A DNA stretch of 64,000 nt from Escherichia coli O157 typing phage 4, in sequence record KP869102; one strand, 5' to 3'. Below the pieces are notes generated by a model. The model had not been told where the DNA came from, ran no database searches, and saw only the letters and a program-made list of their open reading frames with translations. Below, piece after piece: positions 10,761 to 64,000 of the stretch. The position numbers and the translations under genes were made by a program. The stretch's first letter is position 1; each line of letters opens with the position of its first letter.

Positions 10761-10769
10761 TTTAAGGCT

Positions 10770-11258: not shown

Positions 11259-11269
11259 TATTCATTATT

Positions 11270-11344: not shown

Positions 11345-11345
11345 A

Positions 11346-11421: not shown

Positions 11422-11426
11422 AAAAA

Positions 11427-11517
11427 GGTGCTAGGTGATGGAGTCGAACCACCCGAATCGCAATGATAACAGATTTACAGTCTGCCCCGCTACCCCTACG
11501 GAATTAACTCACCTAAA
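11427..11517 (-). tRNA. tRNA-Tyr-like (anticodon GTA), long variable arm; possibly aberrant
   Basis: Anticodon arm GCAGA-CTGTAAA-TCTGT, T-arm GGTGG-TTCGACT-CCATC, variable hairpin; acceptor stem pairs imperfectly. Confidence 0.45.
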
Positions 11518-11643
11518 TACTAATATTTAAATTCTTTTTAAAATAGCTAGTGTTCTCACCACTAACTATGAGGTATCGGTAAAGTGGTTACCGCCACTTG
11601 CCGAAGATTTACTCTGCTAAAGTAAGCTACATTAAAAAGAACT

Positions 11644-11718
11644 TGGCACCCCGTACTGGACTCGAACCAGTGTCAACGGCTTAGAAGGCCGCTGCTTTAT
11701 CCACTAAGCTAACAGGGC
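11644..11718 (-). tRNA. tRNA-Arg (anticodon TCT)
   Basis: Acceptor with two G-U pairs, T-arm ACTGG-TTCGAGT-CCAGT, anticodon loop CTTCTAA, CCA encoded. Confidence 0.7.
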
Positions 11719-11814
11719 ACTGGGTGGCTTTCTTTTACACCTTAGCCGCCAGAAAAGGTGGGAGACCATGTTTACAATATTACACTGTTAAGCAAAGTTT
11801 GTCAAGAAAATATT

Positions 11815-12153
11815 TTAGCTATTGCTAACAGGCTGTATTTCTGTGGTAAACGGCATAAAAGGTGCTGGTTTTTCAGCCTCTTCTACTACCACCTCTTCCT
11901 CTTCACCAAACATCTCATCATATTCTTCCTGCATTCGGTCTGCCTTATCAAGAACATACTCTGCAATGCTTTGACGAATATTTTGTTTGGTTTTCGGGTC
12001 CAACATCAGCTCTCTTAAAACTTTGTGAGCTTCTGGAACCATCGCTATAAAAGATTCCTTCATATCAAGGATGTTCTTCTCTAGCTGAATGGCGTTGGAC
12101 TCCTCTTTCAGAGGTCTGCCTCTACGGCGACGCTTTTTAGTTGTATCCGCCAT
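11815..12153 (-). CDS. putative terminase small subunit / DNA-binding packaging protein
   Basis: 112 aa from ATG at 12153 (GGAGGA RBS); basic N-terminus KKRRRRGRP, acidic C-terminus; upstream of terL. Confidence 0.4.
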   Translation of the reverse strand: MADTTKKRRRRGRPLKEESNAIQLEKNILDMKESFIAMVPEAHKVLRELMLDPKTKQNIRQSIAEYVLDKADRMQEEYDEMFGEEEEVVVEEAEKPAPFMPFTTEIQPVSNS

Positions 12154-12501
12154 GTTTCCTCCATTATCACGTGATAGGTGGATTTTATCACAGCAAATAC
12201 TGATTGTCAAGTTCGCCGCAGGGTGGTGTTCCCTGCGACTTGTCCAGCGTCCTGGACCAGCAAGACCCAACAAGTGGGTTTTCCAGCTATACCCATTACC
12301 GCGCTCAGGCTCGACCTTATTACAGGTTGGCTGGGGTCACATCGTCATGTGCTGGCTGCCCCTACCATTTTAAGTGTGGTGCACTATCAAGCCCTCTAAG
12401 GGGAACTCAGTCTTCTCCGAACCCTGTTTCAAAGCATCCGGAGATAAAGCCATCAAATTCATCTTTAAATTGGATATTCATCATGATACACGAAAACAAC
12501 C

Positions 12502-12744
12502 TCATTGTAAAGCGCAAATAAATAAAACATACTTAATTTGTTTGTTATCAGGCTCAGGGTAGAAGTAGAAGATCTTGCTATCACCGATCTGAACACCACC
12601 ATCCCAACAGCATAGCCCATAACCTGTATTCATACAAGCTAAGTCGTTGGCAAAATCTATTGCATCATCCAGTGCACGAAATTCACCTTCATCTTCTAAA
12701 TAATCCTCATTCATGGAACGAAAAACGAGCTTAACCTTAAACAT
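12502..12744 (-). CDS. hypothetical protein
   Basis: 80-aa minus-strand ORF. Confidence 0.35.
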   Translation of the reverse strand: MFKVKLVFRSMNEDYLEDEGEFRALDDAIDFANDLACMNTGYGLCCWDGGVQIGDSKIFYFYPEPDNKQIKYVLFICALQ

Positions 12745-12820
12745 AGCATTACCTGTAGACCTCGTAAGTTAAAATTGTAGCACATCATATTGCAGATCTT
12801 ATCAGGTAACACTGTTTTTG

Positions 12821-13030
12821 TCAACAGATTCCGGCCTTATCTCGCCTGTCTGCGTATTCTTTAATCGCAACCTCATCTGCATTAGTGACCAGGTCTTCAA
12901 AGTAACTCTCAAGCTCCTCGTCAATGTCAGGAGACCAGCTCTTTTTCCTGTCAGTGTGAATTGCAGACTTGTTGAACTTATTACAGTTCTTTGCTACCGG
13001 GTTATTCATTAAGCGCTCCTCAGCGTTCAT
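12821..13030 (-). CDS. hypothetical protein
   Basis: 69-aa acidic ORF, short overlap with upstream gene. Confidence 0.3.
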   Translation of the reverse strand: MNAEERLMNNPVAKNCNKFNKSAIHTDRKKSWSPDIDEELESYFEDLVTNADEVAIKEYADRRDKAGIC

Positions 13031-13598
13031 AGTAAATTTTATTTAACATTACCTCATCCTTTGCAGAAAGAATACCGAGATATGCATCACCGAATCTACC
13101 TGCAACAACCTCTGCATGATACATTACTTCGTTAATATCGTCAAGAGTGATAACTGGATGACCGTATCTCTCTGAGTATTGTCTCAGAGTGCGATGTAGA
13201 GAGTCATCATCATAGGCAGACTTTTTAATATCACAAACACGACGAATAGCCTTGATGTCGAAAAACCCTGTACGATACCAACCAAGAAAAAGGTTTCGTG
13301 CAGTGTCAACATCTACATCAATACCATCAAGAACCTTATCTACAAGATAGCTATCATCCTTTGGACTCGCTTCCTTAGTGCGGATATAGTTGCCATCTTT
13401 TCCAGGTGACAGCTCCTTCTCATCACCAGCCTTCATGTCATCATTTGGCGGGGTTAGCCACTTATCCGGATGCTTACGATCACGAGCGTTAGAATGATTA
13501 CGCTGGAAACCTGGCTGCCACTTGAAAGTTTTCTCCATCTGTTCTTCATTCTGATAACGTTTTGCAATCTTTTCACGGTCATCTTTGCGTGAACTCAT
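13020..13598 (-). CDS. hypothetical protein
   Basis: 192-aa ORF. Confidence 0.5.
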   Translation of the reverse strand: MSSRKDDREKIAKRYQNEEQMEKTFKWQPGFQRNHSNARDRKHPDKWLTPPNDDMKAGDEKELSPGKDGNYIRTKEASPKDDSYLVDKVLDGIDVDVDTARNLFLGWYRTGFFDIKAIRRVCDIKKSAYDDDSLHRTLRQYSERYGHPVITLDDINEVMYHAEVVAGRFGDAYLGILSAKDEVMLNKIYYER

Positions 13599-14102
13599 AG
13601 CTGCCTCCTCTTCAAGTTATAGAAAAACTCACTGTATCGCTTTGTAACGAGCTTTTCTATCAAACTGGTGCGATTGCATTACTTGGTATGGTTTATATAG
13701 CTGTGGAGCGATTTAGGGTCCTTCTTGTCCGTTTCCACACATAAACTTTATCCAAACTCGCGCGGGAGGCTCTCAACCGACTCCTTACGGCGCTGGCAAG
13801 CTTTCGTCGGTGGCCCACATTAGTGCTCGGCCTTTGGCCTGCGCTATCGCTTCGCTCCCACACATGTTAACAGACCTGCATGTATGCACTTCTGTTATTG
13901 TGTGCACTATGGAGGCCCGGCATCTCGCCCCTCGTAGGCGAGTGCCAATGAAGGGCCGACACTACCCATAGTAAGTAATAAATTTAAAACATGGTACTTA
14001 GGATCTAATATATTCTACATAAGTTAAGTATATGTACTTTAGTACCATAAGTACTAGATCTTTTATTTTTTATTATTCAGTTATTTTAGTTATATTCTTT
14101 AT

Positions 14103-14170
14103 GTGTCCGTATCACGGACAGTTAGTGTCCGTATTACGGGCAGTAGTGTCCGTATCACGGACAGTTAGTG
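14103..14170. repeat. three tandem palindromes TGTCCGT-N3-ACGGACA (candidate operator or origin sites)
   Basis: 18-bp inverted repeat present three times at ~21-23 bp spacing; middle copy degenerate. Confidence 0.6.
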
Positions 14171-14238
14171 GACTCTGTTCCAGAGCGAACATAAAACATA
14201 CGAATCCTTATAGTACAGATATTTAAGTTTTTACTGGT

Positions 14239-14589
14239 CTAACCAGTTGTTGACATCCGAATAACCTCTTCTGGTGGCAAAACTTTGGAAAATGTGCATC
14301 TTTTACCTCTCCCTTGTGTGGATGTTTCAACCACCCCCGCACACTCTAAAGTTTTAACGCACGCTGCTGCTTTTGTTTTCTTTATCCCAACATCTGCTGC
14401 AATTTTCCTTGTGCTTGGTGTGAAGCGTGAATTTCCTCCAAGCTTATACCAGTTGTGCAGGTAGCAGTATACAATCTTGTCATACAAGTCAAGAACAACA
14501 ACCTCTCCAGTTGTGTCATTCAAAACTTTTGACATAGACAGTATTTCAAGGGGGACTTTAAGATATAGCAGCTTATCCCCATCTTTCAT
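14239..14589 (-). CDS. putative HTH DNA-binding protein
   Basis: 116 aa with helix-turn-helix-like segment TRKIAADVGIKKTKAAACVKTLECAGVV. Confidence 0.45.
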   Translation of the reverse strand: MKDGDKLLYLKVPLEILSMSKVLNDTTGEVVVLDLYDKIVYCYLHNWYKLGGNSRFTPSTRKIAADVGIKKTKAAACVKTLECAGVVETSTQGRGKRCTFSKVLPPEEVIRMSTTG

Positions 14590-14636
14590 ATCTCCTGATT
14601 CTCCTTGTGTGGCAATTTTCTTTAAAATAGCAGGGA

Positions 14637-15191
14637 TTACTCCCCGCTGTCAATAGCAAAACTCATTGCAATACGGTATGCTTCTTCTAATGGTAAGAGT
14701 CTCCCCCACACATCCCAACCGACATCAAGCTGCCTGCCAAACAACTGTTGTGTGGTTCCGTGAGCATGACCGAACAGTTGGACTGATCCATGAGGCTTTC
14801 TGTTCCACTTTGCAAACTGGTAATGGCTCATACAGATCAAATTCTTGTTGTGGCGAAGCTCGTAATAATCTACAACCTCGTGATAGAACTCTTTCATAAT
14901 TCTGACAGTCGTCCTTGTGTCATGGTTGCCACGAACAAGAATAATATGTCCGTTCAACATATTTAGAATATCCGGGAGTAAGTTGTTGATATTCTTATCA
15001 TTAGTGCACGCAATATCTCCCAAGTGGAACACAGTGTCTGCAGGTGACACAACAGAGTTCCACTCGGCGATGATTCCTGCATTCATACTGTCAAGATTGT
15101 GATCATACTGAGATCTGTGTTTTTGACATGAATCAAACTCCATGACCCGCTGGTGGAGAAAGTGTGTGTCGCTTGTTACAAAGTATTTCAT
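14637..15191 (-). CDS. calcineurin-like metallophosphoesterase
   Basis: Motifs DTHF, GDIAC, GNHD; start trimmed to ATG at 15191 with GAGGA RBS. Confidence 0.7.
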   Translation of the reverse strand: MKYFVTSDTHFLHQRVMEFDSCQKHRSQYDHNLDSMNAGIIAEWNSVVSPADTVFHLGDIACTNDKNINNLLPDILNMLNGHIILVRGNHDTRTTVRIMKEFYHEVVDYYELRHNKNLICMSHYQFAKWNRKPHGSVQLFGHAHGTTQQLFGRQLDVGWDVWGRLLPLEEAYRIAMSFAIDSGE

Positions 15192-15198
15192 ACATTCC

Positions 15199-15609
15199 TC
15201 ATTTAAGTTTAATGCAGTTTTTAAGCTGGCGTTCCATACGATCCACAACCCTGTCTGGAACATCATGAATGCTTTTATTACCGTGGCGGTTTTCAACCAC
15301 GATCACGGTATAACTATACCCATGACTGATTGCCATGTCAACATATTCCTGCACATGTTTTTCTTTTGTAAACGTATTACTTACCACGATACGGTCGTAT
15401 CCCATACGCATCATATCTTCTACGTTATCTTTGCACCATTTTGCTGCGAGTGTTACTTTACTTGCATCCCAGTTGTAATTGCCGTCATCGTCATACCAGA
15501 ACATGTCGTTCTCAAAATGTGGATACAGACCTTCTAAAGATAGCGCATTTGCCAGTGTTGATTTGCCAGACCCTGGCAGACCACGCACGATATATAGCAT
15601 TTTAGACAT
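15199..15609 (-). CDS. P-loop kinase (polynucleotide kinase-like)
   Basis: Walker A GLPGSGKST near N-terminus; start at ATG 15609 with GGAGGA RBS. Confidence 0.6.
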   Translation of the reverse strand: MSKMLYIVRGLPGSGKSTLANALSLEGLYPHFENDMFWYDDDGNYNWDASKVTLAAKWCKDNVEDMMRMGYDRIVVSNTFTKEKHVQEYVDMAISHGYSYTVIVVENRHGNKSIHDVPDRVVDRMERQLKNCIKLK

Positions 15610-15709
15610 AGCAATCCTCCGTTTTAATTTTAATGATAGTATACCTAACTGTTTTGTTAATTTCAAGTGTTGACACTAGGTTATTTGTGTGGCAGGATAG
15701 ACTGACAAA

Positions 15710-16645
15710 ATGACAAATGAGGAACGTATGATGAAGTATTTTAATGCAGACGATCTAGTTGACAAAGGTCTTGTAACCAGCAGATATTACCCAGATCTTG
15801 GATTAAAGATTTATAAATATGCCAGAAAAGTATTTTACAACAATTTATGGCATTTGTCCCCTCGTTTGCTGGAGTGCCGAGGCATTGTTGTCGGTAATGA
15901 AGGAAATGTTGTGGCATGGCCCTTCACAAAAGTGTTTAACTTGGGAGAAAATCACACCAACCTGCCTGACAATAAGCTTGTGACGGCGGTAGAGAAAAAG
16001 AACGGATTCCTCGGTGTGGTGTCATCTCATAAAGGTGAACTATTGTTCTCAACAACCGGATCTCTTGATTCCCCATATTGTAACCTCGCAAAGGAAACCA
16101 TCCGGGAGCAATGTGGTAATTTAGATCTTATCAAGAAGGTTATGGGCAATGAAAACATGACATTCATGTTTGAAATTTGTCACCCTTCAGATCCGCATAT
16201 TGTTCAGGAAGATCATGGCGCATATTTGATAGGTTGCAGATATAATGATTCTGGAATAATGCTACCAGAAGCAGCTTTAGATGGGATTGCCAAATACCTT
16301 GGCGCAAAACGTCCTCACACTGTGCGTGAAATTCCGTTCAGCTATGCAAAAGAATTGGCTGCAGAAACAAGAGGTGAAGGGTATATGATTCGTAAGCCTT
16401 ACTACCCTTATGATCTGCAGCTGAAGATCAAGTCTCCATACTATCTGGCACGGAAGGCCGTAATGAGGGGTAAAGCTTGGAAGATTTGGGATGATGATAT
16501 CTTTAAACGTGTTGACGAAGAGTTTTACGGCATGGTAAACTTCATTCGTAGCAATTACACAGAAGATGTGTGGAACTGCCTACTGGAGCAGGAACGCAGG
16601 GAGATACTCGACCACTATTTCCACAACGAGGACTATATGCAATGA
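15710..16645 (+). CDS. putative RNA ligase (nucleotidyltransferase superfamily)
   Basis: Lysine motif VEKKNGF (KxNG) in 311-aa protein; divergent from flanking kinase/phosphoesterase. Confidence 0.5.
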   Translation: MTNEERMMKYFNADDLVDKGLVTSRYYPDLGLKIYKYARKVFYNNLWHLSPRLLECRGIVVGNEGNVVAWPFTKVFNLGENHTNLPDNKLVTAVEKKNGFLGVVSSHKGELLFSTTGSLDSPYCNLAKETIREQCGNLDLIKKVMGNENMTFMFEICHPSDPHIVQEDHGAYLIGCRYNDSGIMLPEAALDGIAKYLGAKRPHTVREIPFSYAKELAAETRGEGYMIRKPYYPYDLQLKIKSPYYLARKAVMRGKAWKIWDDDIFKRVDEEFYGMVNFIRSNYTEDVWNCLLEQERREILDHYFHNEDYMQ

Positions 16646-16992
16646 AGAAGTTGATTGTGTGGCTGGATGATTTGAGAGATCCGTCAAATTATGGACTCCC
16701 AGACGCTGTTTGGCTGAAGAATTCCTCCGAGTTTATGGATTTTATTAACGATAAGGGAAAGCTCTACAGACGCGTTTCTGAGTGGCATATGGACAACGAC
16801 CTAGGAGAAGTATTCGAAGGATATGATTGCCTATCCATGTTGGAGGAAAAATTTGTATTCGGTAAGCCTCCCGTGGTTGACAACGTGAAGATTTTCGTAC
16901 ATACTTCTAATCCATCAGCGGCTCGTAAATTCATGCTTGCAGCTGACTCGTTTAAAAAGTTTGGAATAGAGATTAAACAAAACATCTACTGA
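16642..16992 (+). CDS. hypothetical protein
   Basis: ATGA overlap with ligase stop; 116 aa. Confidence 0.4.
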   Translation: MKKLIVWLDDLRDPSNYGLPDAVWLKNSSEFMDFINDKGKLYRRVSEWHMDNDLGEVFEGYDCLSMLEEKFVFGKPPVVDNVKIFVHTSNPSAARKFMLAADSFKKFGIEIKQNIY

Positions 16993-17000
16993 GGACACTT

Positions 17001-17762
17001 ATGCGACGACTGATTATTATCTCCGGTGCTGGTTTGAGCGCTGAATCTGGTATTCCCACTTTCCGATCTGGTAGCACTGCAATGTGGGAGAATTTCAGCA
17101 TCGATGAGGTGTGCAACATCCACACCTTTGCCAAGAACTACTATAAGGTGCATGACTTTTACAATGCACGTCGCGTAGCTCTGGGCAGTGTTGATCCTAA
17201 CCTTGCACATCTTCGGATCGCTGAGTGGTATTCCCGCTGGTCTGGTCGTGTGATCAACCTTACCACCAATGTAGATGATTTGCTGGAGCGTGCTGGTGTA
17301 AAACATGAAGATATTTTACATGTCCACGGGTATTTGCCTGAAATCACCTACGAAGATGCTGAAGGTAATGATGTAATTAAAAATATCGGATACACGGAGG
17401 TAGATACAGGCAAGTATACCTGGGTTAAGCCCAATGTAGTGTTCTTCGGTGAGGTTGCTCCTAAGTATACAGACATGTATGACCTGTTGACATCTCTCAC
17501 AAGCAATGATATGGTGATCCTGGTAGGTTGTTCTAACACAGTTATTAATTTTAACTGGGAATTGTTTCCTGCTACTTGTAAAGGCACAAAACTGCTGATT
17601 GTAAACAAGTATGATTCGCAGAGTGCAGATGGAAGTGGCATTTCACGTAGCGACCTTTATCAATATGAGGATCGCGGGATCCCTGTATGGTTTAACGGTG
17701 CTGTTGACGCTTTCTCTGATAAAGTATTTATTGAAACTGTAGAAAACTTTATGGAACTTTAA
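17001..17762 (+). CDS. Sir2-family NAD-dependent deacetylase / ADP-ribosyltransferase
   Basis: Sirtuin motifs GAGLSAESGIPTFR, NxDxL-like TTNVDDL and HG. Confidence 0.7.
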   Translation: MRRLIIISGAGLSAESGIPTFRSGSTAMWENFSIDEVCNIHTFAKNYYKVHDFYNARRVALGSVDPNLAHLRIAEWYSRWSGRVINLTTNVDDLLERAGVKHEDILHVHGYLPEITYEDAEGNDVIKNIGYTEVDTGKYTWVKPNVVFFGEVAPKYTDMYDLLTSLTSNDMVILVGCSNTVINFNWELFPATCKGTKLLIVNKYDSQSADGSGISRSDLYQYEDRGIPVWFNGAVDAFSDKVFIETVENFMEL

Positions 17763-17775
17763 AAGGAGACCTTTA

Positions 17776-18489
17776 ATGCTGAATACTAAACTGATCGACA
17801 ACCTGGAAAAACTGTCTCAGCCTGAAAACTACCTTTGGTCTGCCAACTGGGTGGAAAACTGGAACCGTGTGGCAGCTAAGGTGAAAAAATCATACACACC
17901 ATTCGAATTACAGCTTAGCTTCATTGAGGAAGAGTTCAATGAAGTTTTGGAAGAGCTGGAGAAAGGTGATGGTGGAGATCACTTGCTAAAAGAGGCCTGC
18001 GATCTTCATGTTGTCACAAGTTATGCCGCTTATCTTGTTAATGACAATCACGAAAAGTGGTCAAACCTGTTTGATAATCCACGAGGTATTAAGTTCAAGA
18101 TTGGTGAGTTCTATGATACACTGATCGCTGCGAAAAACACCTCTAAGCAAAGAGCGTCTGCTTACCGCTTAGCAGAGTTGTCAACAGCTTTGCTGTTCCA
18201 GCTTCGCGGCGATGTGTGCGGGATGATGCGTAAGGTTCTCAAATCGAATGACAGCAAGTTTGCACGGGTCAACCATCTACGGTATTCACACGGTGCCAGT
18301 GCAGATATGCCTGCTGAACAACTCATCGAGTTGGAGATTAAAGATCTTGAGCGACGCTTTGATGGTCGATATGAAGGTTTTGTTGCTAAGGAAGAATTCT
18401 ACAACGGTAATAAAGTTATCATATTCCTTGACAGTAAAGGTAAGATCATGAAGCCTTCAAGCTTCAAGGATGTAACAGAGTATATTTAA
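17776..18489 (+). CDS. putative MazG-like nucleotide pyrophosphohydrolase
   Basis: EEEFNEVLEELE...EACDL resembles the MazG EExxE motif; weak. Confidence 0.35.
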   Translation: MLNTKLIDNLEKLSQPENYLWSANWVENWNRVAAKVKKSYTPFELQLSFIEEEFNEVLEELEKGDGGDHLLKEACDLHVVTSYAAYLVNDNHEKWSNLFDNPRGIKFKIGEFYDTLIAAKNTSKQRASAYRLAELSTALLFQLRGDVCGMMRKVLKSNDSKFARVNHLRYSHGASADMPAEQLIELEIKDLERRFDGRYEGFVAKEEFYNGNKVIIFLDSKGKIMKPSSFKDVTEYI

Positions 18490-18522
18490 CAACATAGCCG
18501 GGATCACCCGGCTTTACTTGTT

Positions 18523-18861
18523 GTGGAAAGTATGCAAGTGAGGCAGATAGTTATGTACAAGCACTCTAGAGATCTTGAAAACGATGCTGTGTTTGGGGAT
18601 CAGATGAAAGAGTTGGTTAAACTCATAGGCAGGATAGAGGATAAGTTTGACACTAAGATCTACATCGACAGCAAAGTATTCAACCACAAAATATGGACAA
18701 ATCTGTGTGTTGGACTACATGGAGATAAAGATGTTGTAAATTTAGTTGTAATTAGGTTCATAGTGTGGCAGAATAAAACTATAAATTATTACGATCCACA
18801 CCTGCTTGTTTACCCGATAAAAGACCTATTAGATAAGGAGGACTGCAATGCCGTTATTTAA
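18523..18861 (+). CDS. hypothetical protein
   Basis: 112-aa ORF. Confidence 0.4.
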   Translation: MESMQVRQIVMYKHSRDLENDAVFGDQMKELVKLIGRIEDKFDTKIYIDSKVFNHKIWTNLCVGLHGDKDVVNLVVIRFIVWQNKTINYYDPHLLVYPIKDLLDKEDCNAVI

Positions 18862-19117
18862 TCTTGCTAAACCTGTAGAAGCACACCAGTTTGACGGAAG
18901 CTCTTCATCAGTATCTGATCTGCAACGGTGGATTGATACAGGTGTGTTTACATCGTCACCTGTTCGGACCAGAGATCTTCGTCGTATGTGTGAGCTTGTA
19001 GAGCCGTTTGGTAACCTAGTCTTGTACCAGGGTGATTGGCTTGTTGATTTTATGGGGGACTGGTTGGTAATGAGTAAAGAAGAGATGTTTAAAATTTTTA
19101 AGGAAGAGGTAGAGTAA
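18848..19117 (+). CDS. hypothetical protein
   Basis: 89-aa ORF overlapping neighbours by a few nt. Confidence 0.4.
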   Translation: MPLFNLAKPVEAHQFDGSSSSVSDLQRWIDTGVFTSSPVRTRDLRRMCELVEPFGNLVLYQGDWLVDFMGDWLVMSKEEMFKIFKEEVE

Positions 19118-20400
19118 TGCATCAAATCAAAACAACACTGTACGCACTGAACAAAGATGGCAGCTACCAACAGTGGAAAGTATTCACGGATGGTGATAAG
19201 GTTATCGTAGAGTTTGGCAAGCTTGATGGTAAACTGCAATACAAAGAGACGATCTGCACACCTAAGAACGTAGGTCGTGCCAACGAGACTACAGCTGAGC
19301 AACAGGCCGAGCTTGAGGCTATCAGTAAGTGGGAAAAACAAGTCCGTCTGGGGTATGTTGAAAACATGGAAGATTGCGAGCAGGGTGTTGACCTTTTACC
19401 CATGCTGGTGCATGACTATCTGAAGCGTGGCAAGGCACTTAAATTACCTTGCTGGATCTTGCGTAAGTTAGATGGCCTTCGTCTGCTTGTTGTTTTCCAA
19501 AATGGTGAGCCTAAATTTATTTCCCGTGGTAATAAGTCCTACCCTATTCAAGGAAAGCTTTTAGAGCAACTTCGTTCTTTCCATTCTACCACTGGGATTA
19601 AACAACTTGATGGGGAACTATACATTCATGGTCTTCCTTTGCAGAAAATAGTGTCTCTTGCTAAACGGTGGCGCACACAGGAAGAGATTCAGGCCGAGAT
19701 CGATAAAGACTATGAGGCAGATAAAAAACGCCGTCATGCCGCAATTAAGGCAGGCTTATCAACATACAAAAACTTCAACAAGGTAGATATTCCTGTCGAT
19801 GTTGATCCTGTTCGTGATGATTTGCGTTACGGTGGGTACTGTAGCTACGATCTGGAGTATCACATTTTTGATATTCCTAGCGACAAGGTGTGGTGGGATC
19901 CAGAAACAGAGTCTGGACGCTGCAAGGATCTTATGGATGCAGAGGATACCGTTACCACTCTGATGCTTGACCATATCAAGGTTGTTGACGCAGAGCTTGC
20001 GTACACAGTTGATCATTGCGAAGAATCTGTTGGTATATTCATGTCCGAAGGATATGAAGGTACCATTATGCGTAACTTCTGTGGTAAATATGAGTACGGT
20101 CAGCGAACATCTGAAGCATTGAAATGGAAAAAGTTCAACGACGCAGAGGTGAAAGTTATTGACGTTGAGAAAGATAAGAATGATGAAGGTGTTCTTATCT
20201 GTGTTGACAAGGAAGGTATTGTTGTTAAAATGAAGATGAAAGGTACGCACGAGGAGCGTAGCTATGACAGAATGCAGGAAATGATCGGCAAGTTTGTCAC
20301 CTTCAAATATCAAGCAAGGACAGAAGACAACAACTACCAATTCCCTGTCGGTATCTGCGTCCGAAATGTTAACCCAGACACTTGGGAGGTGCTGGAATAA
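19117..20400 (+). CDS. ATP-dependent DNA ligase
   Basis: Adenylation motif I RKLDGLR (KxDG) and EGTIMR motif; 427 aa. Confidence 0.75.
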   Translation: MHQIKTTLYALNKDGSYQQWKVFTDGDKVIVEFGKLDGKLQYKETICTPKNVGRANETTAEQQAELEAISKWEKQVRLGYVENMEDCEQGVDLLPMLVHDYLKRGKALKLPCWILRKLDGLRLLVVFQNGEPKFISRGNKSYPIQGKLLEQLRSFHSTTGIKQLDGELYIHGLPLQKIVSLAKRWRTQEEIQAEIDKDYEADKKRRHAAIKAGLSTYKNFNKVDIPVDVDPVRDDLRYGGYCSYDLEYHIFDIPSDKVWWDPETESGRCKDLMDAEDTVTTLMLDHIKVVDAELAYTVDHCEESVGIFMSEGYEGTIMRNFCGKYEYGQRTSEALKWKKFNDAEVKVIDVEKDKNDEGVLICVDKEGIVVKMKMKGTHEERSYDRMQEMIGKFVTFKYQARTEDNNYQFPVGICVRNVNPDTWEVLE

Positions 20401-49577: not shown

Positions 49578-49864
49578 TGAAAGATCTGGTTAAGATTAAG
49601 ATTAAAGATACCAATGGGGAGCTCAGCCATTTTGGAATTAATGATGGTGACGAGCTGATCGCACACCTGCCTACCAAGGAGGTTGTAAGCAAAGCAGTTG
49701 CCGGAGAAGAAGCTGCAATGCAGGCTGCAGGTGTGGATGAAAACTATGTAGCTATGTGCATGTGCCGAGATCAGGTTGTTCTGTATAAAGCGTATCGACC
49801 AAACGGAGCCACGGAGTGGCTTGTATTCCGACCCGAAGGATATGAAATCTTAGAGGCACTATGA
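49577..49864 (+). CDS. hypothetical protein
   Basis: 95 aa. Confidence 0.45.
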   Translation: MKDLVKIKIKDTNGELSHFGINDGDELIAHLPTKEVVSKAVAGEEAAMQAAGVDENYVAMCMCRDQVVLYKAYRPNGATEWLVFRPEGYEILEAL

Positions 49865-49953
49865 TAAATCTTGCCAAGGTTGCAACGGCACTGTTAATTA
49901 TTTGCTGGTCAGTAACCTTAACACTGTGTCTTGTATTTCAGTGAGGTGCTTGT

Positions 49954-50217
49954 ATGAACATCCTGATGTGGGTTATAGCAGTGGCGTTTGTTGCATGTTT
50001 TTGCTGCTGGGTTGCGGTGAGGATTTCTGTAGCTACCCTTCGGAAGTTGGGGTTCTCAGAATGGGATATTAATATCCTTTCTTTTCGCAATGAGACAATA
50101 TCAGCCGCCCTGCTTTGTAAGAAATTCAAGTGGGAACCTTGTGAGGTCATGAACTATCTAAGAACGGGAGATATCCCTGAAAGATTTAAAAAAGTTCTTG
50201 ACGGTAAGGATAAATGA
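49954..50217 (+). CDS. small membrane protein
   Basis: N-terminal TM helix; 87 aa. Confidence 0.4.
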   Translation: MNILMWVIAVAFVACFCCWVAVRISVATLRKLGFSEWDINILSFRNETISAALLCKKFKWEPCEVMNYLRTGDIPERFKKVLDGKDK

Positions 50218-50245
50218 TAGTATAGTGACTAACAAGAGGTGAGGA

Positions 50246-50386
50246 ATGACAGATTTTACTGAAGCTTTAATGATGGCCTTGTCTGTTTTAGCGCTATCGG
50301 TGTGTTTTGGGGCGTTATTCACATCTCTGGTTAAAGTTTTACATACAGTATTATTACCCAAGGAGCGCAGTAATGACGAAGATTGA
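50246..50386 (+). CDS. small membrane peptide (46 aa)
   Basis: GAGGTGAGGA RBS; hydrophobic core; overlaps next gene start. Confidence 0.3.
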   Translation: MTDFTEALMMALSVLALSVCFGALFTSLVKVLHTVLLPKERSNDED

Positions 50387-50624
50387 CTTGAATGCTGGCG
50401 ACCATGTTGTTGTCAAATGCATCGGAGATTATCTTGGATTCACAATCGGCAATACTTACGAGGCGGTAGTGGCGAAGGTTTATCATGATAAAGTCCTCAG
50501 TCTTGTATTTGACTGCGATGATGATGGGGATGACCGATACGTCTGTGAGGTGCTGGCACGAGACGATAGTGAAGACCAGAAATTCCTGGTTATTGAACTG
50601 AACGGTATTTTTGTAGAACGTTAA
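50373..50624 (+). CDS. hypothetical acidic protein
   Basis: ATG at 50373 with AAGGAG RBS. Confidence 0.4.
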   Translation: MTKIDLNAGDHVVVKCIGDYLGFTIGNTYEAVVAKVYHDKVLSLVFDCDDDGDDRYVCEVLARDDSEDQKFLVIELNGIFVER

Positions 50625-50652
50625 TTTAAAACAACATAAGGAGACTCTTACT

Positions 50653-50958
50653 ATGGCTAAATCTAAAGTTGAACTGTTCACCTCTCTTCCTTCTGACACT
50701 GCAGAGCGTGATCGCCTTCGCAAAACAATCGAAGAACTGGTGGAACTCCAACTTCAGATTAAAGATCTGAAAGATGCCATCAAGGATATCATTCTTGTTG
50801 AGAAGCAGGATCATCTGTATTCTCCTAAATTCATCAAATCTCTGGTGGCTACCGAGTTCGATATTCGATATGAGGCTGAAAAACGTCGAGCTAAAATCGA
50901 AGAAGAGGTTGAGCACATGTCCGAGGCAGACATTCTGTTCAAACGCTCTGTAGAATAA
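50653..50958 (+). CDS. hypothetical coiled-coil protein
   Basis: 101 aa, AAGGAG RBS. Confidence 0.45.
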   Translation: MAKSKVELFTSLPSDTAERDRLRKTIEELVELQLQIKDLKDAIKDIILVEKQDHLYSPKFIKSLVATEFDIRYEAEKRRAKIEEEVEHMSEADILFKRSVE

Positions 50959-50964
50959 TGACAA

Positions 50965-50990
50965 AGAGAGGGGCTTGGGCCCCTCTTTTT
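50965..50990 (+). terminator. rho-independent terminator
   Basis: GAGAGGGGC-TTG-GGCCCCTCT hairpin followed by TTTT. Confidence 0.7.
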
Positions 50991-51013
50991 ACTATCTATG
51001 AAGGAGATTTGAG

Positions 51014-51340
51014 ATGGGTATACCGATCACTGTAAAAGAATTGAATGAACGTGATGCAGGTGGTCTATGGCCTGCACGAAAAATACGCTGCGTCTACATG
51101 AAAGAGAACCTTGAACATCTTGATCAACAGATCAAGGTCGGTGATATTTTCGAGGTCTTCTATTCCAATCGTCGCAACTGGGAAACCATTCAGCCTTCTG
51201 GTTTTGTTCTTGCCAAACTTGACACTGGAGAAGTGATTATCCCAGGGTTGGATATTGTCTTCGAAATTATCCAGGAGTGGGATCCGGATAAGATTAGATA
51301 TGAAGAGTTATTCGGTGAAGGTATTATCAAACCTGTGTGA
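51014..51340 (+). CDS. hypothetical protein
   Basis: 108 aa, AAGGAG RBS. Confidence 0.45.
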   Translation: MGIPITVKELNERDAGGLWPARKIRCVYMKENLEHLDQQIKVGDIFEVFYSNRRNWETIQPSGFVLAKLDTGEVIIPGLDIVFEIIQEWDPDKIRYEELFGEGIIKPV

Positions 51341-51648
51341 GGTGGATTATGTCTACAAAGACGGCTAAATACTCCTACATGCCATCAACCTCTGCAGAGG
51401 TAGATTTTAGTTTCGATGTGTTTCCACTGTTTGAGGTGGTTCTGGCATACCCAACAATACTATCTACTCCGGAATCACTTGTGCCTGTTAAGTTGCAGAA
51501 CGCCATGCATTCTATGCACTACAACAATAAATGCAGGCACAGATGGTGTCAGGACGAGGAAAAAGATCTGGATAGTTTGAGAGATTTTGACAGTCACCTT
51601 TTGACACCTTTCAGCTACTCCAACCTTGATAAGCCATCATGGGTATAG
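51337..51648 (+). CDS. hypothetical protein
   Basis: 103 aa, ATGA overlap. Confidence 0.4.
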   Translation: MRWIMSTKTAKYSYMPSTSAEVDFSFDVFPLFEVVLAYPTILSTPESLVPVKLQNAMHSMHYNNKCRHRWCQDEEKDLDSLRDFDSHLLTPFSYSNLDKPSWV

Positions 51649-51861
51649 CAAAATATCAAATTTAAGACACCTAGGACGCTCTGTGGCGTCCTTTTCTTTA
51701 TCTGGTGCACGATTGCATACCTTGGACAGATAATCTCCTTACAGAGCGTTTAAGAGCTTCCTACAAACAACTCTCTTTTTCGAGCGTAGCGAGAACGCAC
51801 GTCCGTTTTGACCAAAATCACCATACGCTCGGATTTTAACCAAACCCTCGCGGCGTTTCTG

Positions 51862-51891
51862 TTGACACATTGCCGCTCCAGTGATAATATC
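51862..51891 (+). promoter_or_regulatory. sigma70-like promoter
   Basis: TTGACA - 18 nt - TAATAT. Confidence 0.5.
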
Positions 51892-51910
51892 CACACATCA
51901 TTTGGAGAAT

Positions 51911-52012
51911 ATGGAATACACAATGAAAACATTGTCCGAAGTTTTAGTGGTGATCCTGATGATCATTACGTCCATAGCGGCTGTTGCCGGAATACTCACG
52001 GGTGGAACATGA
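51911..52012 (+). CDS. small membrane peptide (33 aa)
   Basis: GGAG RBS; hydrophobic LVVILMIITSIAAVAGIL; ATGA overlap with next gene. Confidence 0.3.
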   Translation: MEYTMKTLSEVLVVILMIITSIAAVAGILTGGT

Positions 52013-52221
52013 TCAACACACATGCATCTGAAGAGACATCAAAAGGAGTGACTATATGTCCCTTGGCTGAGCCAGTGAAAGAGGAAAACTTCGATTCTGA
52101 AGATTCTCCATCTTCGCTCCAGGTAGACCCTGAGGCTGATGACCTAACGTGGGAAGACATCGTAGATATCTGGTTCTCTGTTATGCCTGAGCACGAAGAG
52201 TTCAGGGGTGGTAGACTATGA
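52009..52221 (+). CDS. hypothetical acidic protein
   Basis: Internal ATG of track ORF 51808..52221; the upstream part of that ORF would run through the promoter. Confidence 0.35.
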   Translation: MINTHASEETSKGVTICPLAEPVKEENFDSEDSPSSLQVDPEADDLTWEDIVDIWFSVMPEHEEFRGGRL

Positions 52222-52342
52222 AGCACCGAGCCCACACAAGTTCCTCATGCTAAAGCATGGCCTGAAGAGGCAAACGTGCATAATTCCTGTGCATCGGAAC
52301 GTATGAAACCTTGTTCACACTCTCATTTCCAGAGGAGATTTT

Positions 52343-52558
52343 ATGAAGATAGAAATATTTGGTGGAGCTGACAACACTCGTGGCCTGATTTACCTTGAAT
52401 TCGATGAATCATACCTACCAGAGGTGTTAAATATAGACTCTGTTGCGGAGGCTTTGGGAGTAAACCCTAAAGAACTCCACTCTTGTGCTGAGATCGATGG
52501 TTGGGAAGAGACCATGAACATTGATTTCAGTGAAGTAGAGGATGAACCGCTGGACTGA
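52343..52558 (+). CDS. small acidic protein (MKIEIFG N-terminus)
   Basis: 71 aa, GGAG RBS, acidic tail. Confidence 0.4.
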   Translation: MKIEIFGGADNTRGLIYLEFDESYLPEVLNIDSVAEALGVNPKELHSCAEIDGWEETMNIDFSEVEDEPLD

Positions 52559-52793
52559 CACACAATTAGCTGCCCGGCTAAAGTGCTGGAAGCACCTATA
52601 ACACATCTTTCAACTAAATTTCCCACCACAACAATCACTTACCTCCCATACATGACTGTTTGCTTGTTTAGTGAGCAGTCATGCCTTGACATTCTTGCCT
52701 ATCCTGATAAAATTAAGTTCTTCTCTTTTCTTTTACCGAGTAATTCGGGTTTTCTGTTCTCTTCGGTTTGAAGGGGTATGGAGATACACCTGA

Positions 52794-52893
52794 NNNNNNN
52801 NNNNNNNNNNNNNNNNNNNNNNNNNNNNNNNNNNNNNNNNNNNNNNNNNNNNNNNNNNNNNNNNNNNNNNNNNNNNNNNNNNNNNNNNNNNNN
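52794..52893. other. assembly gap (run of N)
   Basis: 100 consecutive N. Confidence 0.99.
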
Positions 52894-53531: not shown

Positions 53532-53633
53532 CCNNNNNNNNNNNNNNNNNNNNNNNNNNNNNNNNNNNNNNNNNNNNNNNNNNNNNNNNNNNNNNNNNNN
53601 NNNNNNNNNNNNNNNNNNNNNNNNNNNNNNNNN
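53532..53633. other. assembly gap (run of N)
   Basis: About 100 consecutive N. Confidence 0.99.
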
Positions 53634-59760: not shown

Positions 59761-60076
59761 TTGGGAGATAGAAATCTGTTACCTCGTAGAATCCACAATC
59801 GTCGCACTCGCCTTCTTCAAACTTGGCCTCAACCTTAATACCGAGGAAGGTGAAAAGTTTATGAATATCTTCAGTTTCGAACTCCCAGTGAATGTTGTTT
59901 TCCGCATCGGTGTAGAACTGGATCAGCAGACCATTGTCCAGTTTACCAAAATACTCTGTGAAGTAACTTCCTTCCCAGAAATCTCTATGACAAATAATAT
60001 CCATGCGTTTGCCCATAATAATGGTGTGAGCGTTTTGGGCATCGTCGCGAATCAGTTTTGGCATTTCATAGATCAT
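59651..60076 (-). CDS. hypothetical acidic protein
   Basis: 141-aa ORF; 3-prime end overlaps macro-domain ORF. Confidence 0.4.
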   Translation of the reverse strand: MIYEMPKLIRDDAQNAHTIIMGKRMDIICHRDFWEGSYFTEYFGKLDNGLLIQFYTDAENNIHWEFETEDIHKLFTFLGIKVEAKFEEGECDDCGFYEVTDFYLPSGENLYYESHFGNSNMPQGWDEFFEIAEEELAYRDY

Positions 60077-60144
60077 CTTAGTTCTCCGGGTTCAACAGGT
60101 GGTGGTGCTACAGGAAGATCATAAAACATAGCTATCACAGTCTC

Positions 60145-60342
60145 TTACACAGGAATTGCTTCAAACAGGCCGTTATCTATACCGTCCTTCAGATAGAGAT
60201 TATATTCTATATCGGTATCTGTATAAAGGGCAGCATCCAGCATTCTATCTGTGAGTCCATCCATTGGGTGGAGAAACCACCACCCACGCCAGTCAAAGTA
60301 ACAGCCTGGTGCATCTTCTCTTACACGGATTCGATAAATCAT
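60145..60342 (-). CDS. hypothetical protein (gene A; second copy starts at 61334)
   Basis: 65 aa; identical N-terminus seen again at 61285-61334. Confidence 0.4.
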   Translation of the reverse strand: MIYRIRVREDAPGCYFDWRGWWFLHPMDGLTDRMLDAALYTDTDIEYNLYLKDGIDNGLFEAIPV

Positions 60343-60438
60343 GGGCAGTGGCCTCCTGTTAGTTATACATCCCAGTTTTCTTCGTTCATCGCGTCCTCCC
60401 GTTATATGAAGTTATAATTGCACACCTTTCAACCTGTG

Positions 60439-60855
60439 TCAACAGAAAACTTCAACAAATTCTTCCACAGTTTTAATGTCGTGGGAAAAAGGTTTACGGC
60501 TATAACGGGCAATAGCACTATCAACCACCGCCCGGTACTCCAAATCTTCAGAATATTTCATGAAGCATTGCAGCGTCTCTGGGCAGATAGCTAAATAGCT
60601 CCACCACCCTTCTTCAGATTGGTAGTCGAATCCCATACTCTCCAACCATGAAGCATATACTCCTGCACCCTCAAGCCAGTGAGTATTTTCATCCAGAAAC
60701 TTGTTAATAGACATGTGAGCTTCTAAGCATTTATCTAGCTCTTTTCCGTTAACCAGCCACGCACTGACCGTGGCGCATCCAAGGTCTACAGATTGAGTTG
60801 ACAGGTTGTATTGGTCATAGTTCTCAGGTTTAACAATGATATCTTCTAATGTCAT
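60439..60855 (-). CDS. hypothetical protein (gene B, copy 1)
   Basis: 138 aa; ~98 percent identical to 61431..61847. Confidence 0.45.
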   Translation of the reverse strand: MTLEDIIVKPENYDQYNLSTQSVDLGCATVSAWLVNGKELDKCLEAHMSINKFLDENTHWLEGAGVYASWLESMGFDYQSEEGWWSYLAICPETLQCFMKYSEDLEYRAVVDSAIARYSRKPFSHDIKTVEEFVEVFC

Positions 60856-60874
60856 TTTTCAGATCTCCTTATAC

Positions 60875-60903
60875 AAAAATGCCCCACCCTTTCGGGCAGG
60901 GCT
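60875..60903 (-). terminator. rho-independent terminator (second copy at ~61867-61895)
   Basis: On minus strand GCCCTGCCC-GAAA-GGGTGGGGC followed by ATTTTT. Confidence 0.65.
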
Positions 60904-60917
60904 ATGTTAACTAATTG

Positions 60918-61184
60918 TTAAAAAGGGATGTCATCATCAAAGGAGTACTGTGCTGGATTCTGATCCATTGGGTCATCTTCCTCATCATTTACAGGAGGAG
61001 CGTCTACAGTGTTTTGCTGTGGAGCTGCTTCCTGTTTGGTAGCCTGAGGTTCTTGATGGTCAGTTGACCCAGCACCGTTCTTGATCCAATCGTACAACGG
61101 CTCAGCCAGATTAGTCAAGACATCTTTTGCTTCTGCAGTAATTGCCGCTGCAAAATCATCAACTTTCGTTTTCTTGTCAATACG
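60918..61184 (-). CDS. SSB-like protein, C-terminal fragment ending DDDIPF (5-prime part lost in gap)
   Basis: Gly/Pro/Gln-rich linker then acidic tip ...PAQYSFDDDIPF-stop. Confidence 0.4.
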   Translation of the reverse strand, partial: RIDKKTKVDDFAAAITAEAKDVLTNLAEPLYDWIKNGAGSTDHQEPQATKQEAAPQQNTVDAPPVNDEEDDPMDQNPAQYSFDDDIPF

Positions 61185-61284
61185 NNNNNNNNNNNNNNNN
61201 NNNNNNNNNNNNNNNNNNNNNNNNNNNNNNNNNNNNNNNNNNNNNNNNNNNNNNNNNNNNNNNNNNNNNNNNNNNNNNNNNNNN
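61185..61284. other. assembly gap (run of N)
   Basis: 100 consecutive N. Confidence 0.99.
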
Positions 61285-61430
61285 TCAAAGTAACAGCCTG
61301 GTGCATCTTCTCTTACACGGATTCGATAAATCATGGGCAGTGGCCTCCTGTTAGTTATACATCCCAGTTTTCTTCGTTCATCGCGTCCTCCCGTTCTATG
61401 AAGTTATAATTGCACACCTTTCCACCTGTG

Positions 61431-61847
61431 TCAACAGAAAACTTCAACAAACTCTTCCACAGCTTTAATGTCGTGGGAAAAAGGTTTACGGCTATAACGG
61501 GCAATAGCACTATCAACCACCGCCCGGTACTCCAAATCTTCAGAATATTTCATGAAGCATTGCAGCGTCTCTGGGCAGATAGCTAAATAGCTCCACCACC
61601 CCTCTTCAGATTGGTAGTCGAATCCCATACTCTCCAACCATGAAGCATATACTCCTGCACCCTCTAGCCAGTGGGTATTTTCATCAAGAAATTTATTCAC
61701 CGACATGTGTGCTTCCAGGCACTCGTCAAGCTCTTTTCCGTTAACCAGCCATGCACTGACTGTGGCGCATCCGAGGTCTACAGATTGAGTTGACAGGTTG
61801 TATTGGTCATAGTTCTCAGGTTTAACAATGATATCTTCTAATGTCAT
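61431..61847 (-). CDS. hypothetical protein (gene B, copy 2)
   Basis: 138 aa; differs from copy 1 at a few residues. Confidence 0.45.
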   Translation of the reverse strand: MTLEDIIVKPENYDQYNLSTQSVDLGCATVSAWLVNGKELDECLEAHMSVNKFLDENTHWLEGAGVYASWLESMGFDYQSEEGWWSYLAICPETLQCFMKYSEDLEYRAVVDSAIARYSRKPFSHDIKAVEEFVEVFC

Positions 61848-61909
61848 TTTTCAGATCTCCTTATACAAAAATGCCCCACCCTTTCGGGCAGGGCTATGTC
61901 AGTTAGGTG

Positions 61910-62533
61910 CTAAAAGTATTCATAGAGGTATCCATCGGGAGCTGGAATTTTTTCATGAATGTAGTAATCAACACATATTCCGGTTTCTCTTCTACAAGAA
62001 TTGTGGGATACCCATTCTTTAAGAACGTTGCCATTCATGTCCAGCCTCCTTACATTTTTACACCGTCTACCGCTGGTGCTTCTATGCAACAGAATATCCT
62101 CCGTCTGCTTGTCTTTATTTTCTCCCCAGGTCGTTAAACGGATATTATCAAAAGAGTACCCTTTGAAATCATCTATCCTGTCACAAGAAGGCTTTTTCCT
62201 TTTGTCGTATCCGCTGGCTACCCACTGGTCATACAACTCTTTGTAACCGTTCAGGTATAGCCACTCCTTAAACTCTTTTTTGGTGTAAGTCGGAGGAGGG
62301 TGACCTCTTTGCTTGCTGTTGCACTTTTGAGCCTTGTACAACACGCGTATTACACCTTTTTCTGAAGAGTCGTGGGAAAACTGGTCAGCCTCCCTACTGG
62401 CCTTCTTACAACACTCTTTGCACTTATTAAGATGACCGTCAGACATCTTTGGGTGTTTGTAGAACTCGGAGAGGTTTTTCACCTCTCCGCACTTGATGCA
62501 TCTCTTACAATGCGTAGATTCTACTTTTGCCAT
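61910..62533 (-). CDS. putative HNH-type homing endonuclease
   Basis: N-terminal Cys cluster [13 protein letters not shown]...CKEC, SFDNIRL...GEN segment; present only in copy 2 of the duplicated locus. Confidence 0.5.
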
Positions 62534-63027
62534 ATTGCAGACCTACCGGAGCGAAAGGAATGTCATCACAGAAGTCATACTGTGCTGGATTCTGATCCAT
62601 CGGGTCATCTTCCTCATCATTTACAGGAGGAGCGTCTACAGTGTTTTGCTGTGGAGCTGTTTCCTGTTTGGCAGCCTGAGGTTCTTGATGGTCAGTTGAC
62701 CCAGCACCGTTCTTGATCCAATCGTACAACGGCTCAGCCAGATTAGTCAAGACATCTTTTGCTTCTGCAGTAATTGCCGCTGCAAAATCATCAACTTTCG
62801 TTTTCTTGTCAATACGGCGACAAGCGTTCAACACCGCATTACCGACACTGGCACCTACTTCATCTTCAGTTCGGTTGGTGGCCTGAGCATACTCTTTCTT
62901 AAGCTCAATGGTGACTACGTGCAGTGTTTTAGCCACGCCCAGTGGGTCGTCTACCTTAAACCCGCGATCCAGGATGATCTGCAACGCATTGATGCTATGC
63001 CCCGTTTCCACACCGATAGGGTCGTAA
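62505..63027 (-). CDS. SSB-like protein (copy 2), partial, with C-terminal extension past DDIPF
   Basis: Same linker and acidic tail as 60918 copy but frame continues ...[23 protein letters not shown]; N-terminus lost at gap. Confidence 0.4.
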
Positions 63028-63127
63028 NNNNNNNNNNNNNNNNNNNNNNNNNNNNNNNNNNNNNNNNNNNNNNNNNNNNNNNNNNNNNNNNNNNNNNNNN
63101 NNNNNNNNNNNNNNNNNNNNNNNNNNN
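63028..63127. other. assembly gap (run of N)
   Basis: 100 consecutive N. Confidence 0.99.
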
Positions 63128-63416
63128 TTACGACCCTATCGGTGTGGAAACGGGGCATAGCATCAATGCGTTGCAGATCATCCTGGATCGCGGGTTTAAG
63201 GTAGACGACCCACTGGGCGTGGCTAAAACACTGCACGTAGTCACCATTGAGCTTAAGAAAGAGTATGCTCAAGCCACCAACCGAACTGAAGATGAAGTAG
63301 GTGCCAGTGTCGGTAATGCGGTGTTGAACGCTTGTCGCCGTATTGACAAGAAAACGAAAGTTGATGATTTTGCAGCGGCAATTACTGCAGAAGCAAAAGA
63401 TGTCTTGACTAATCTG
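63128..63416. repeat. inverted duplicate of 62738..63027 (probable assembly artefact)
   Basis: Reverse complement of 63128-63416 matches 62738-63027 with one mismatch; arms flank an N gap. Confidence 0.7.
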
Positions 63417-63516
63417 NNNNNNNNNNNNNNNNNNNNNNNNNNNNNNNNNNNNNNNNNNNNNNNNNNNNNNNNNNNNNNNNNNNNNNNNNNNNNNNNNNNN
63501 NNNNNNNNNNNNNNNN
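63417..63516. other. assembly gap (run of N)
   Basis: 100 consecutive N. Confidence 0.99.
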
Positions 63517-63585
63517 GAAATGGGCAAAAAAGATGCAGAGGACAGCTCAATTCGGGAGTCATATCTACTACAAGGAGCGCAATAA

Positions 63586-64000
63586 ATGATTGTAAACAGT
63601 AATGAAACTAAAGCAGTACTAACCGGAAATATGGAGGTCACCAGGGGCTCAATTTCTCTGAACAAAGAGACTTTTGGGCTAATCATTAAAGGGATTTACG
63701 AAGATAAGGTGCTGGCAAGCTGCCGTGAACCAATCTTCAATGCTGTGGACTCCCATGTTGAGTCTGGACGGGGTGATGTACCGATCATCATTCACTCTCC
63801 TACAGACCTTGAACCATACTTCTTTGTGCAGGACGTTGGATTGGGCATGTCGGAAGAGATGGTCCGCAACACTTTCATGAACCTCGGGGAGTCAACCAAG
63901 CGCAACAGCAACGCTCTGGTAGGTAATAAAGGTGTAGGTTCAAAGGCCCCGTTCAGCATGGTGGACACTTTCGATGTGATCAGTGTGCACAACGGTGTTG
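63586..64000 (+). CDS. GHKL-type ATPase (Hsp90/MutL/GyrB-like ATP-binding fold), partial at window end
   Basis: AAGGAG RBS; N-box EPIFNAVDSH, G1 box QDVGLGM, G2 box GNKGVGSKAPF; no stop before window end. Confidence 0.5.
   Translation, partial: MIVNSNETKAVLTGNMEVTRGSISLNKETFGLIIKGIYEDKVLASCREPIFNAVDSHVESGRGDVPIIIHSPTDLEPYFFVQDVGLGMSEEMVRNTFMNLGESTKRNSNALVGNKGVGSKAPFSMVDTFDVISVHNGV

Follow-up and report, generated by a model that had tools for sequence, protein, structure and literature searches.

A truncated phage reading frame identified as the 5' end of rIIA, with a predicted GHKL ATPase head closest to that of Hsp90

The plus-strand reading frame running off the end of the window (the whole 64,000-nucleotide stretch of DNA that was analysed) is, judging from sequence comparisons, almost certainly the 5' end of the rIIA gene of an rV5/JES2013-like Escherichia phage (Vequintavirus). 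The best overall explanation, to which we assign a probability of roughly 0.85, combines this identity with a role of rIIA and its partner rIIB as a counter-defence pair and with an Hsp90-like clamp as the rIIA product. The gene is ordinary and already known, being annotated as rIIA in JES2013, rV5, EdH4 and more than 100 further near-identical records. The frame at 63586-64000 (+) is free of stops over 138 codons and, as expected for the partial gene that a preliminary description of this DNA had placed here, the gene comprises 660 codons in genomes with identical sequence. The features recognised in and around it were the following.

63518..63589 (+): final 23 codons, with the stop, of a SleB/CwlJ-type cell wall hydrolase gene; translation KWAKKMQRTAQFGSHIYYKERNK followed by the stop, identical to the C-terminus of the hydrolase of a relative
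63572..63577 (+): Shine-Dalgarno sequence AAGGAG, 8 nt before the ATG at 63586, read directly from the sequence
63586..64000 (+): first 138 of the 660 rIIA codons and one further base, truncated at the window end (open frame; PHROG 612; identity to EdH4 and JES2013)
63586..63660 (+): residues 1-25, N-terminal beta segment before helix 1 (AF2 model, profile alignment)
63667..63750 (+): helix 1 and N-box, ETFGLIIKGIYEDKVLASCREPIFNAVD (conservation, hhalign against the HtpG profile)
63832..63849 (+): G1 box DVGLGM (D83, G85 and G87 invariant; unique in six frames)
63850..63921 (+): predicted ATP lid with S103-T104-K105 (low-confidence model loop 99-117; invariant residues)
63922..63939 (+): G2 box GNKGVG, predicted phosphate-binding glycines (G113, G116 and G118 invariant; aligned with Hsp90 GQFGVG)

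Against PHROG 612 ('RIIA lysis inhibitor'), residues 1-138 of the fragment matched profile positions 1-138 with E=9.1e-62, and a full-length relative (P0011, 99% identical) matched positions 1-724 of 725 with E=1.8e-124. The 'lysis inhibitor' label is historical and goes back to the rapid lysis seen in the plaques of rII mutants. By tblastn, 116 phage records matched the fragment at 99% identity or more and were annotated as rIIA, the names used among them being rIIA, 'membrane integrity protector' and 'protector from prophage-induced early lysis'. All 138 residues were identical to those of the rIIA of EdH4, itself a Vequintavirus, and positions 63517-64000 were identical (484/484 nt) to 1569-2052 on the minus strand of Escherichia phage JES2013. 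The preliminary description had held that the identity of the gene could not be resolved from the 138 residues present, and had put forward a topoisomerase II subunit, a MutL-like or a MORC-like protein; the fragment alone names rIIA (PHROG 612, E=9e-62; EdH4, 138/138), and these candidates are wrong. PADLOC gave no meaningful match for RIIA or RIIB, and an NCBIfam search gave sub-threshold matches only. Compared with the rIIA of other members of Vequintavirus (rV5 gp001, JES2013 rIIA, EdH4_00063), residues 1-138 and the upstream hydrolase with its ATGA overlap are alike and no difference was detectable, the window copy merely stopping at codon 138. With T4 rIIA (NP_049616, 725 aa), the founding member of the family, the Vequintavirus protein shares the N-box, G1, G2, an S-x-K lid motif, a PxRE loop and the partner rIIB, but it is 65 residues shorter; BLASTP of the full-length relative aligned residues 1-198 with the T4 protein (E=3e-21, 28% identity), whereas the C-terminal two thirds could not be aligned by this method. 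Foldseek against viral models could align the rIIA proteins of widely differing phages over their full length.

In relatives identical over the fragment, the gene order runs from the hydrolase gene through rIIA (660 codons), 10 nt and rIIB (401 codons) to a helicase gene. The full hydrolase of the relative matched Pfam Hydrolase_2 (E=2e-19), and its stop overlaps the rIIA start as ATGA, in the window as in the relatives; in phages with identical sequence rIIA is translationally coupled to this upstream gene. The rIIB of the relative matched rIIB PHROGs at E=1e-61. Within the 401-residue Vequintavirus rIIB (8994-10199 of the relative, L001), only residues 132-375 matched rIIB profiles, and the N-terminal 130 residues gave only a sub-threshold SPOR-like match (E=0.0014). 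A natural RIIA-RIIB fusion of 1049 aa was found in phage RB43 by Foldseek against viral models, and in the PHROG 609 profile (1055 positions) rIIA matches the start and rIIB the end; such fusions support a joint action of the two proteins as a single unit.

The window itself is a scaffold of contigs from a JES2013-like phage. Positions 1-20000 and 49856-52793 matched JES2013 at 100% and at the same offset, and the pieces after 52793 were redundant and out of order relative to that genome. The N-run listing gave five gaps of 100 N each (no strand):

52794-52893: gap, skipping approximately 9 kb of JES2013 (102938-111813)
53534-53633: gap
61185-61284: gap
63028-63127: gap, flanked by 144-nt perfect inverted arms
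63417-63516: gap, the flanking pieces of which map to distant places in JES2013

The piece carrying rIIA has the opposite orientation to the rest of the window, is joined to it through a 100-N gap and lies approximately 18 kb away in the JES2013 record; the real upstream context of rIIA amounts to 69 nt only. Because the scaffold is gapped, redundant and non-collinear, the local gene order at the window end is artefactual. Positions 60293-60907 and 61285-61899 are two copies of one locus (592/615 positions, 96.3% identity), a duplication that suggests redundant contigs from two co-assembled variants. Positions 63128-63416 are the reverse complement of 62739-63027 (288/289), and the inverted arms around 63028-63127 look like an assembly artefact and not a biological palindrome. 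Two candidate features in this region were rejected: the 289-nt piece at 63128-63416, considered as part of the hydrolase gene, mapped as an inverted duplicate of 62739-63027, and three 138-aa ORFs (60439-60855, 60918-61334 and 61431-61847), considered as a tandem family, belonged to redundant contigs, one of them spanning an N gap. JES2013 and rV5 each hold a single gene matching these ORFs (gp197 and gp207, respectively). Two listed ORFs, 62505-63686 (-; 393 aa) and 62919-63602 (+; 227 aa), read through N gaps and overlap the true rIIA start; like any ORF crossing a gap here, they are artefacts. Elsewhere in the window, a tRNA cluster was located at 11182-11718 (-), comprising Pro(TGG), Met(CAT), Thr(TGT) and Arg(TCT). 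Sixteen database entries carrying the name 'Campylobacter phage', with Campylobacter jejuni as the stated host (MG065655 and MG065635 among them), were 97-100% identical to positions 60000-64000, and the Campylobacter host labels on records matching this E. coli Vequintavirus DNA look doubtful.

The function of the pair is known from work on related phages. Knock-down of RIIA or RIIB by CRISPRi-ART in T4, MM02, EdH4, SUSP1 and N4 lowered plating only on RexAB-expressing cells, and for EdH4 the drop was seen on E. coli carrying lambda RexAB and not on Rex-free cells (Adler et al. 2025, PMC11879866). An anti-RexAB role has thus been reported both in T4 and in a Vequintavirus; T4 requires rIIA and rIIB on RexAB hosts and can do without them elsewhere, and HIDEN-SEQ gave the same result for T4 on RexAB hosts as the knock-down. 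Since EdH4 has the identical 138 residues, the anti-Rex role carries over to the gene in the window, and the restriction of the knock-down phenotype to RexAB hosts means that rIIA/rIIB is a module for counter-defence that is needed only under certain conditions, and not an enzyme of replication, repair or topology. RIIB alone has been reported to set off a bacterial gasdermin system, and rIIA/B of Felixounavirus has been proposed as a counter to QatABCD. The rIIA protein has been described as having a GHKL ATPase at its N-terminus and a C-terminal domain that varies, in a system that is poorly understood (Iyer et al. 2021, PMC7824862).

The 138 codons in the window encode the N-terminal strap and approximately the first two thirds of the Bergerat-fold domain, including the N-box, G1, the lid and G2. 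The N-box E48-P-I-F-N52-A-V-D55 (ExxxNAxD) lies at 63727-63750, the G1 motif D83-V-G-L-G-M88 (DxGxGM) at 63832-63849 and the G2 motif G113-N-K-G-V-G118 (GxxGxG) at 63922-63939, so that the motifs of the GHKL superfamily (ExxxNxxD, DxGxG and GxxGxG) were found in order. What remains of this domain falls past the window edge; a complete Bergerat fold with the fourth motif and last strands was recovered. Pfam HATPase_c_3 matched residues 50-137 of the fragment with 33.1 bits against a cutoff of 25 (E=6.5e-8), and the assignment to the GHKL ATP-binding fold made in the preliminary description was correct. Conservation was assessed in an alignment of 26 homologues with identities between 99% and about 19-20%, which were gathered with the full-length relative as query; the 138-residue query gave only fragments of 96-239 aa. 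Within the window, Y38, R47, E48, N52, A53, D55, D83, G85, G87, S103, T104, K105, G113, G116 and G118 were invariant and, beyond it, G166, Y246, R275 and E276. Nearly all of these residues are present in T4 rIIA, in which A53 is replaced by Met and in which E48, D83 and R275 correspond approximately to E47, D81 and R278. E48 is predicted to be the catalytic base, N52 a Mg ligand and D83 the adenine contact, and the lid region aligns with the Hsp90 lid 'GTIAKSGTK'. In the AF2 model, residues 4-12 and 14-22 form strands at pLDDT below 50, and the rIIA profile from position 14-16 aligns onto the N-terminal strand of Hsp90 chains; residues 1-25 are possibly a strand-swap strap as in Hsp90 and GyrB.

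The conserved residues bear on the possibility that RIIA carries a degenerate, non-catalytic GHKL head and has no role beyond that of a scaffold or decoy for RexA/RexB. In line with this, ATPase activity of RIIA was not reported in the literature found, and the last two thirds of the protein differ greatly from one phage group to another (BLASTP; Iyer et al. 2021, PMC7824862). Invariance of all GHL catalytic residues (E48, N52, D55, D83, G85, G87, K105, G113, G116, G118 and R275) across the 26 homologues and T4 would, however, be unexpected for a dead site, and we regard such a non-catalytic role as improbable.

Among the GHKL clades compared, the head of rIIA is, by profile and structure comparison, closest to Hsp90/HtpG. 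When the rIIA profile was searched against all PDB sequences, the best 60 matches were all Hsp90-family chains (E approximately 1e-8, rIIA 14-206); with a single sequence as query, no PDB match was significant, the best being topoisomerase III-beta and TRAP1 at E of about 0.07-0.1. Using hhalign, the rIIA alignment matched single E. coli HtpG with a probability of 97.1 (E=6.3e-11), relative to 48.1 (E=1.8e-4) for single E. coli GyrB and 20.9 (E=1.1e-3) for single E. coli MutL. Against an HtpG/Hsp90 profile the probability rose to 98.4 (E=1.1e-14), and the window's own 138 residues matched the same profile with E=2.7e-6. This profile was built from 49 diverse sequences taken from representatives, the direct HtpG relatives, all at least 90% identical, being left unused. 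The best 50 matches of Foldseek against the PDB were likewise all Hsp90-family chains, mostly full-length (E approximately 1e-14 to 1e-16), with alignments of 500-730 columns yet TM-scores of only 0.33-0.37. Profile-profile homology to HtpG was significant for the N-domain only, the C-terminal HMMER matches being sub-threshold. In the template comparison, the values listed were 18.2 (296) for TRAP1, 17.0 (266) for ParE 43 kDa, 16.6 for MORC2, 16.5 for the phage T6 topoisomerase II ATPase, 15.5 for MutL, 15.4 for SMCHD1, about 11 (about 160) for isolated Hsp90 N-domains and about 5 for histidine kinases, and a protein with a two-domain ATPase-plus-transducer module of the gyrase/Hsp90/MutL class is therefore predicted. 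The preliminary description would have been undermined by a downstream sequence without a transducer and by fortuitous motifs; such a module is predicted, and the motifs are not due to chance.

The likeness to the Hsp90 family (HtpG, TRAP1, GRP94, Hsp82), with which the rIIA N-domain is homologous, extends through helix 1 and the N-box, where the window reads LIIKGIYEDKVLASCREPIFNAVD and Hsp90 reads LIINxxYSNKEIFLRELISNASDA. The Hsp90 signature (PROSITE pattern Y-x-[NQHD]-[KHR]-[DE]-[IVA]-F-[LM]-R-[ED]) was not found in rIIA, in which the corresponding Y38-E-D-K-V-L-A-S-C-R-E (YEDKVLASCRE against YSNKEIFLRE) is one residue longer and is without the E-I-F-L core. No significant sequence similarity to Hsp90 was found in the C-terminal half of rIIA, and the gene adjoins rIIB and is dispensable without Rex; we know of no chaperone activity of RIIA.

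A domain search on the full protein, suggested in the preliminary description as a check, was carried out with the full-length relative, and returned HATPase_c_3 without the partner domains of a topoisomerase or MutL: at E<=0.1, Pfam gave only HATPase_c_3, and no Toprim, DNA_gyraseB, DNA_mis_repair, MutL_C or HSP90 (PF00183). As none of their domains was found, the protein is not a topoisomerase subunit, a MutL or a canonical Hsp90; the family-specific downstream domains of GyrB/ParE, MutL and MORC modules are absent from rIIA, and the profile similarity of GyrB and MutL to rIIA is much weaker than that of HtpG. An ATP-dimerising GHKL-plus-S5 clamp on DNA of the MutL/MORC kind, which might, for example, mask Rex-triggering phage DNA or a replication signal, is unlikely. 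Neither the DNA_mis_repair and MutL_C pair of MutL nor the MORC/paraMORC combination of a GHKL-plus-S5-fold module with coiled-coil or CW domains or a restriction-modification context was found, the full-length relative having no MutL_C, DNA_mis_repair, CW or coiled-coil domain; the hhalign probability to MutL was 21, no MutL or MORC protein was present among the best 60 PDB sequence matches or the best 50 Foldseek matches, and the second domain has, like that of Hsp90, a conserved Arg within an SRE-like loop. The transducer loops of GyrB and MutL have Lys where Hsp90 has Arg. A phage type II topoisomerase ATPase subunit (GyrB/ParE/T4 gp39-like) is far less probable still: the Toprim and DNA_gyraseB domains that follow the GHKL head in type IIA topoisomerases were not found in the full-length relative, hhalign gave GyrB a probability of only 48 (E=1.8e-4; HtpG, E=6e-11), rIIA profiles match the fragment at E=9e-62, the next gene in relatives is rIIB and not a GyrA-like subunit, and in T4 rIIA is separate from the topoisomerase genes 39 and 60. 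That the three motifs arose by chance in a frame that is non-coding or unrelated, for which only the shortness of the fragment speaks, can be dismissed, since the ordered trio (ExxxNAxD, DxGxGM, GxxGxG) occurred at one site when the six frames of the window were scanned with regular expressions (E...NA.D and D.G.GM once each in approximately 128,000 translated residues), 100 shuffles of the window gave no instance of it, the Pfam score exceeds its cutoff, and more than 100 genomes carry an annotated gene to which the fragment is at least 99% identical; the three motifs thus stand in the order and at the places given in the preliminary description.

The affinity to Hsp90 may extend to a catalytic residue of the second domain. 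The catalytic-loop arginine is Arg336 in HtpG and Arg380 in yeast Hsp90, and the corresponding candidate in rIIA is R275, which together with E276 forms part of a PxRE loop beyond the window and is, like E276, present in T4 as well as in all 26 homologues. The pairing of R275 with HtpG Arg336 was predicted in writing before the alignment was run. In the best local hhalign alignment of rIIA 195-660 with HtpG 213-624 (score 26.3, P=0.022), GDCNINPGREW was placed over SDLPLNVSRE, so that the Hsp90 LNVSRE loop with its catalytic Arg aligns with xxNPGRE of the second domain of rIIA. For comparison, shuffling the template columns 150 times gave a mean score of 15.1 (SD 2.1, maximum 22.2), and the reversed template gave 20.2. 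The same NPGRE/LNVSRE pairing was returned by HMMER, in a 25.4-bit alignment of the rIIA profile 81-325 to HtpG 78-376. These alignments are suggestive of a conserved Hsp90-type catalytic-loop arginine in rIIA. The family-level affinity to Hsp90 and the candidate catalytic arginine appear to be mildly new, as properties of the family and not of this window: no paper tying phage rIIA to Hsp90 was found in the literature searched, and some database entries already label rIIA homologues 'HSP90 family'.

We consider the chances about even that RIIA works as an Hsp90-like, ATP-operated clamp. In such a cycle, ATP would bind the N-domain of RIIA through E48, N52, D83 and the G1/G2 glycines, the lid would shut and the N-domains would dimerise, and R275 in the PxRE loop of the second domain would complete the active site in the manner of Arg336 of HtpG or Arg380 of yeast Hsp90; the cycle, together with RIIB, would prevent either the triggering of RexAB or its depolarisation of the membrane. 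A broader proposal, for which we would put the odds slightly below even, is that RIIA proteins generally (T4, rV5-like and others) are very divergent Hsp90-type ATPases and not simply a GHKL head with a variable tail. They would then have, with the same somewhat tentative standing, an Hsp90-like N-domain, a middle domain keeping the catalytic arginine (PxRE where Hsp90 has LNxSRE) and perhaps an overall architecture like that of Hsp90.

The window copy itself matters little, being a truncated copy of an already annotated gene. The rIIA/rIIB pair is a classic locus and at the same time a live topic in counter-defence, through RexAB, the triggering of gasdermin by RIIB and possibly QatABCD, and an Hsp90-like head with an apparently conserved catalytic-loop arginine may help work on the mechanism of rII. 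If RIIA proteins were indeed divergent members of the Hsp90 type, the rII/Rex problem would become a question about a chaperone-like clamp that is driven by ATP and works together with RIIB, for which three exact point mutants would be available as probes.
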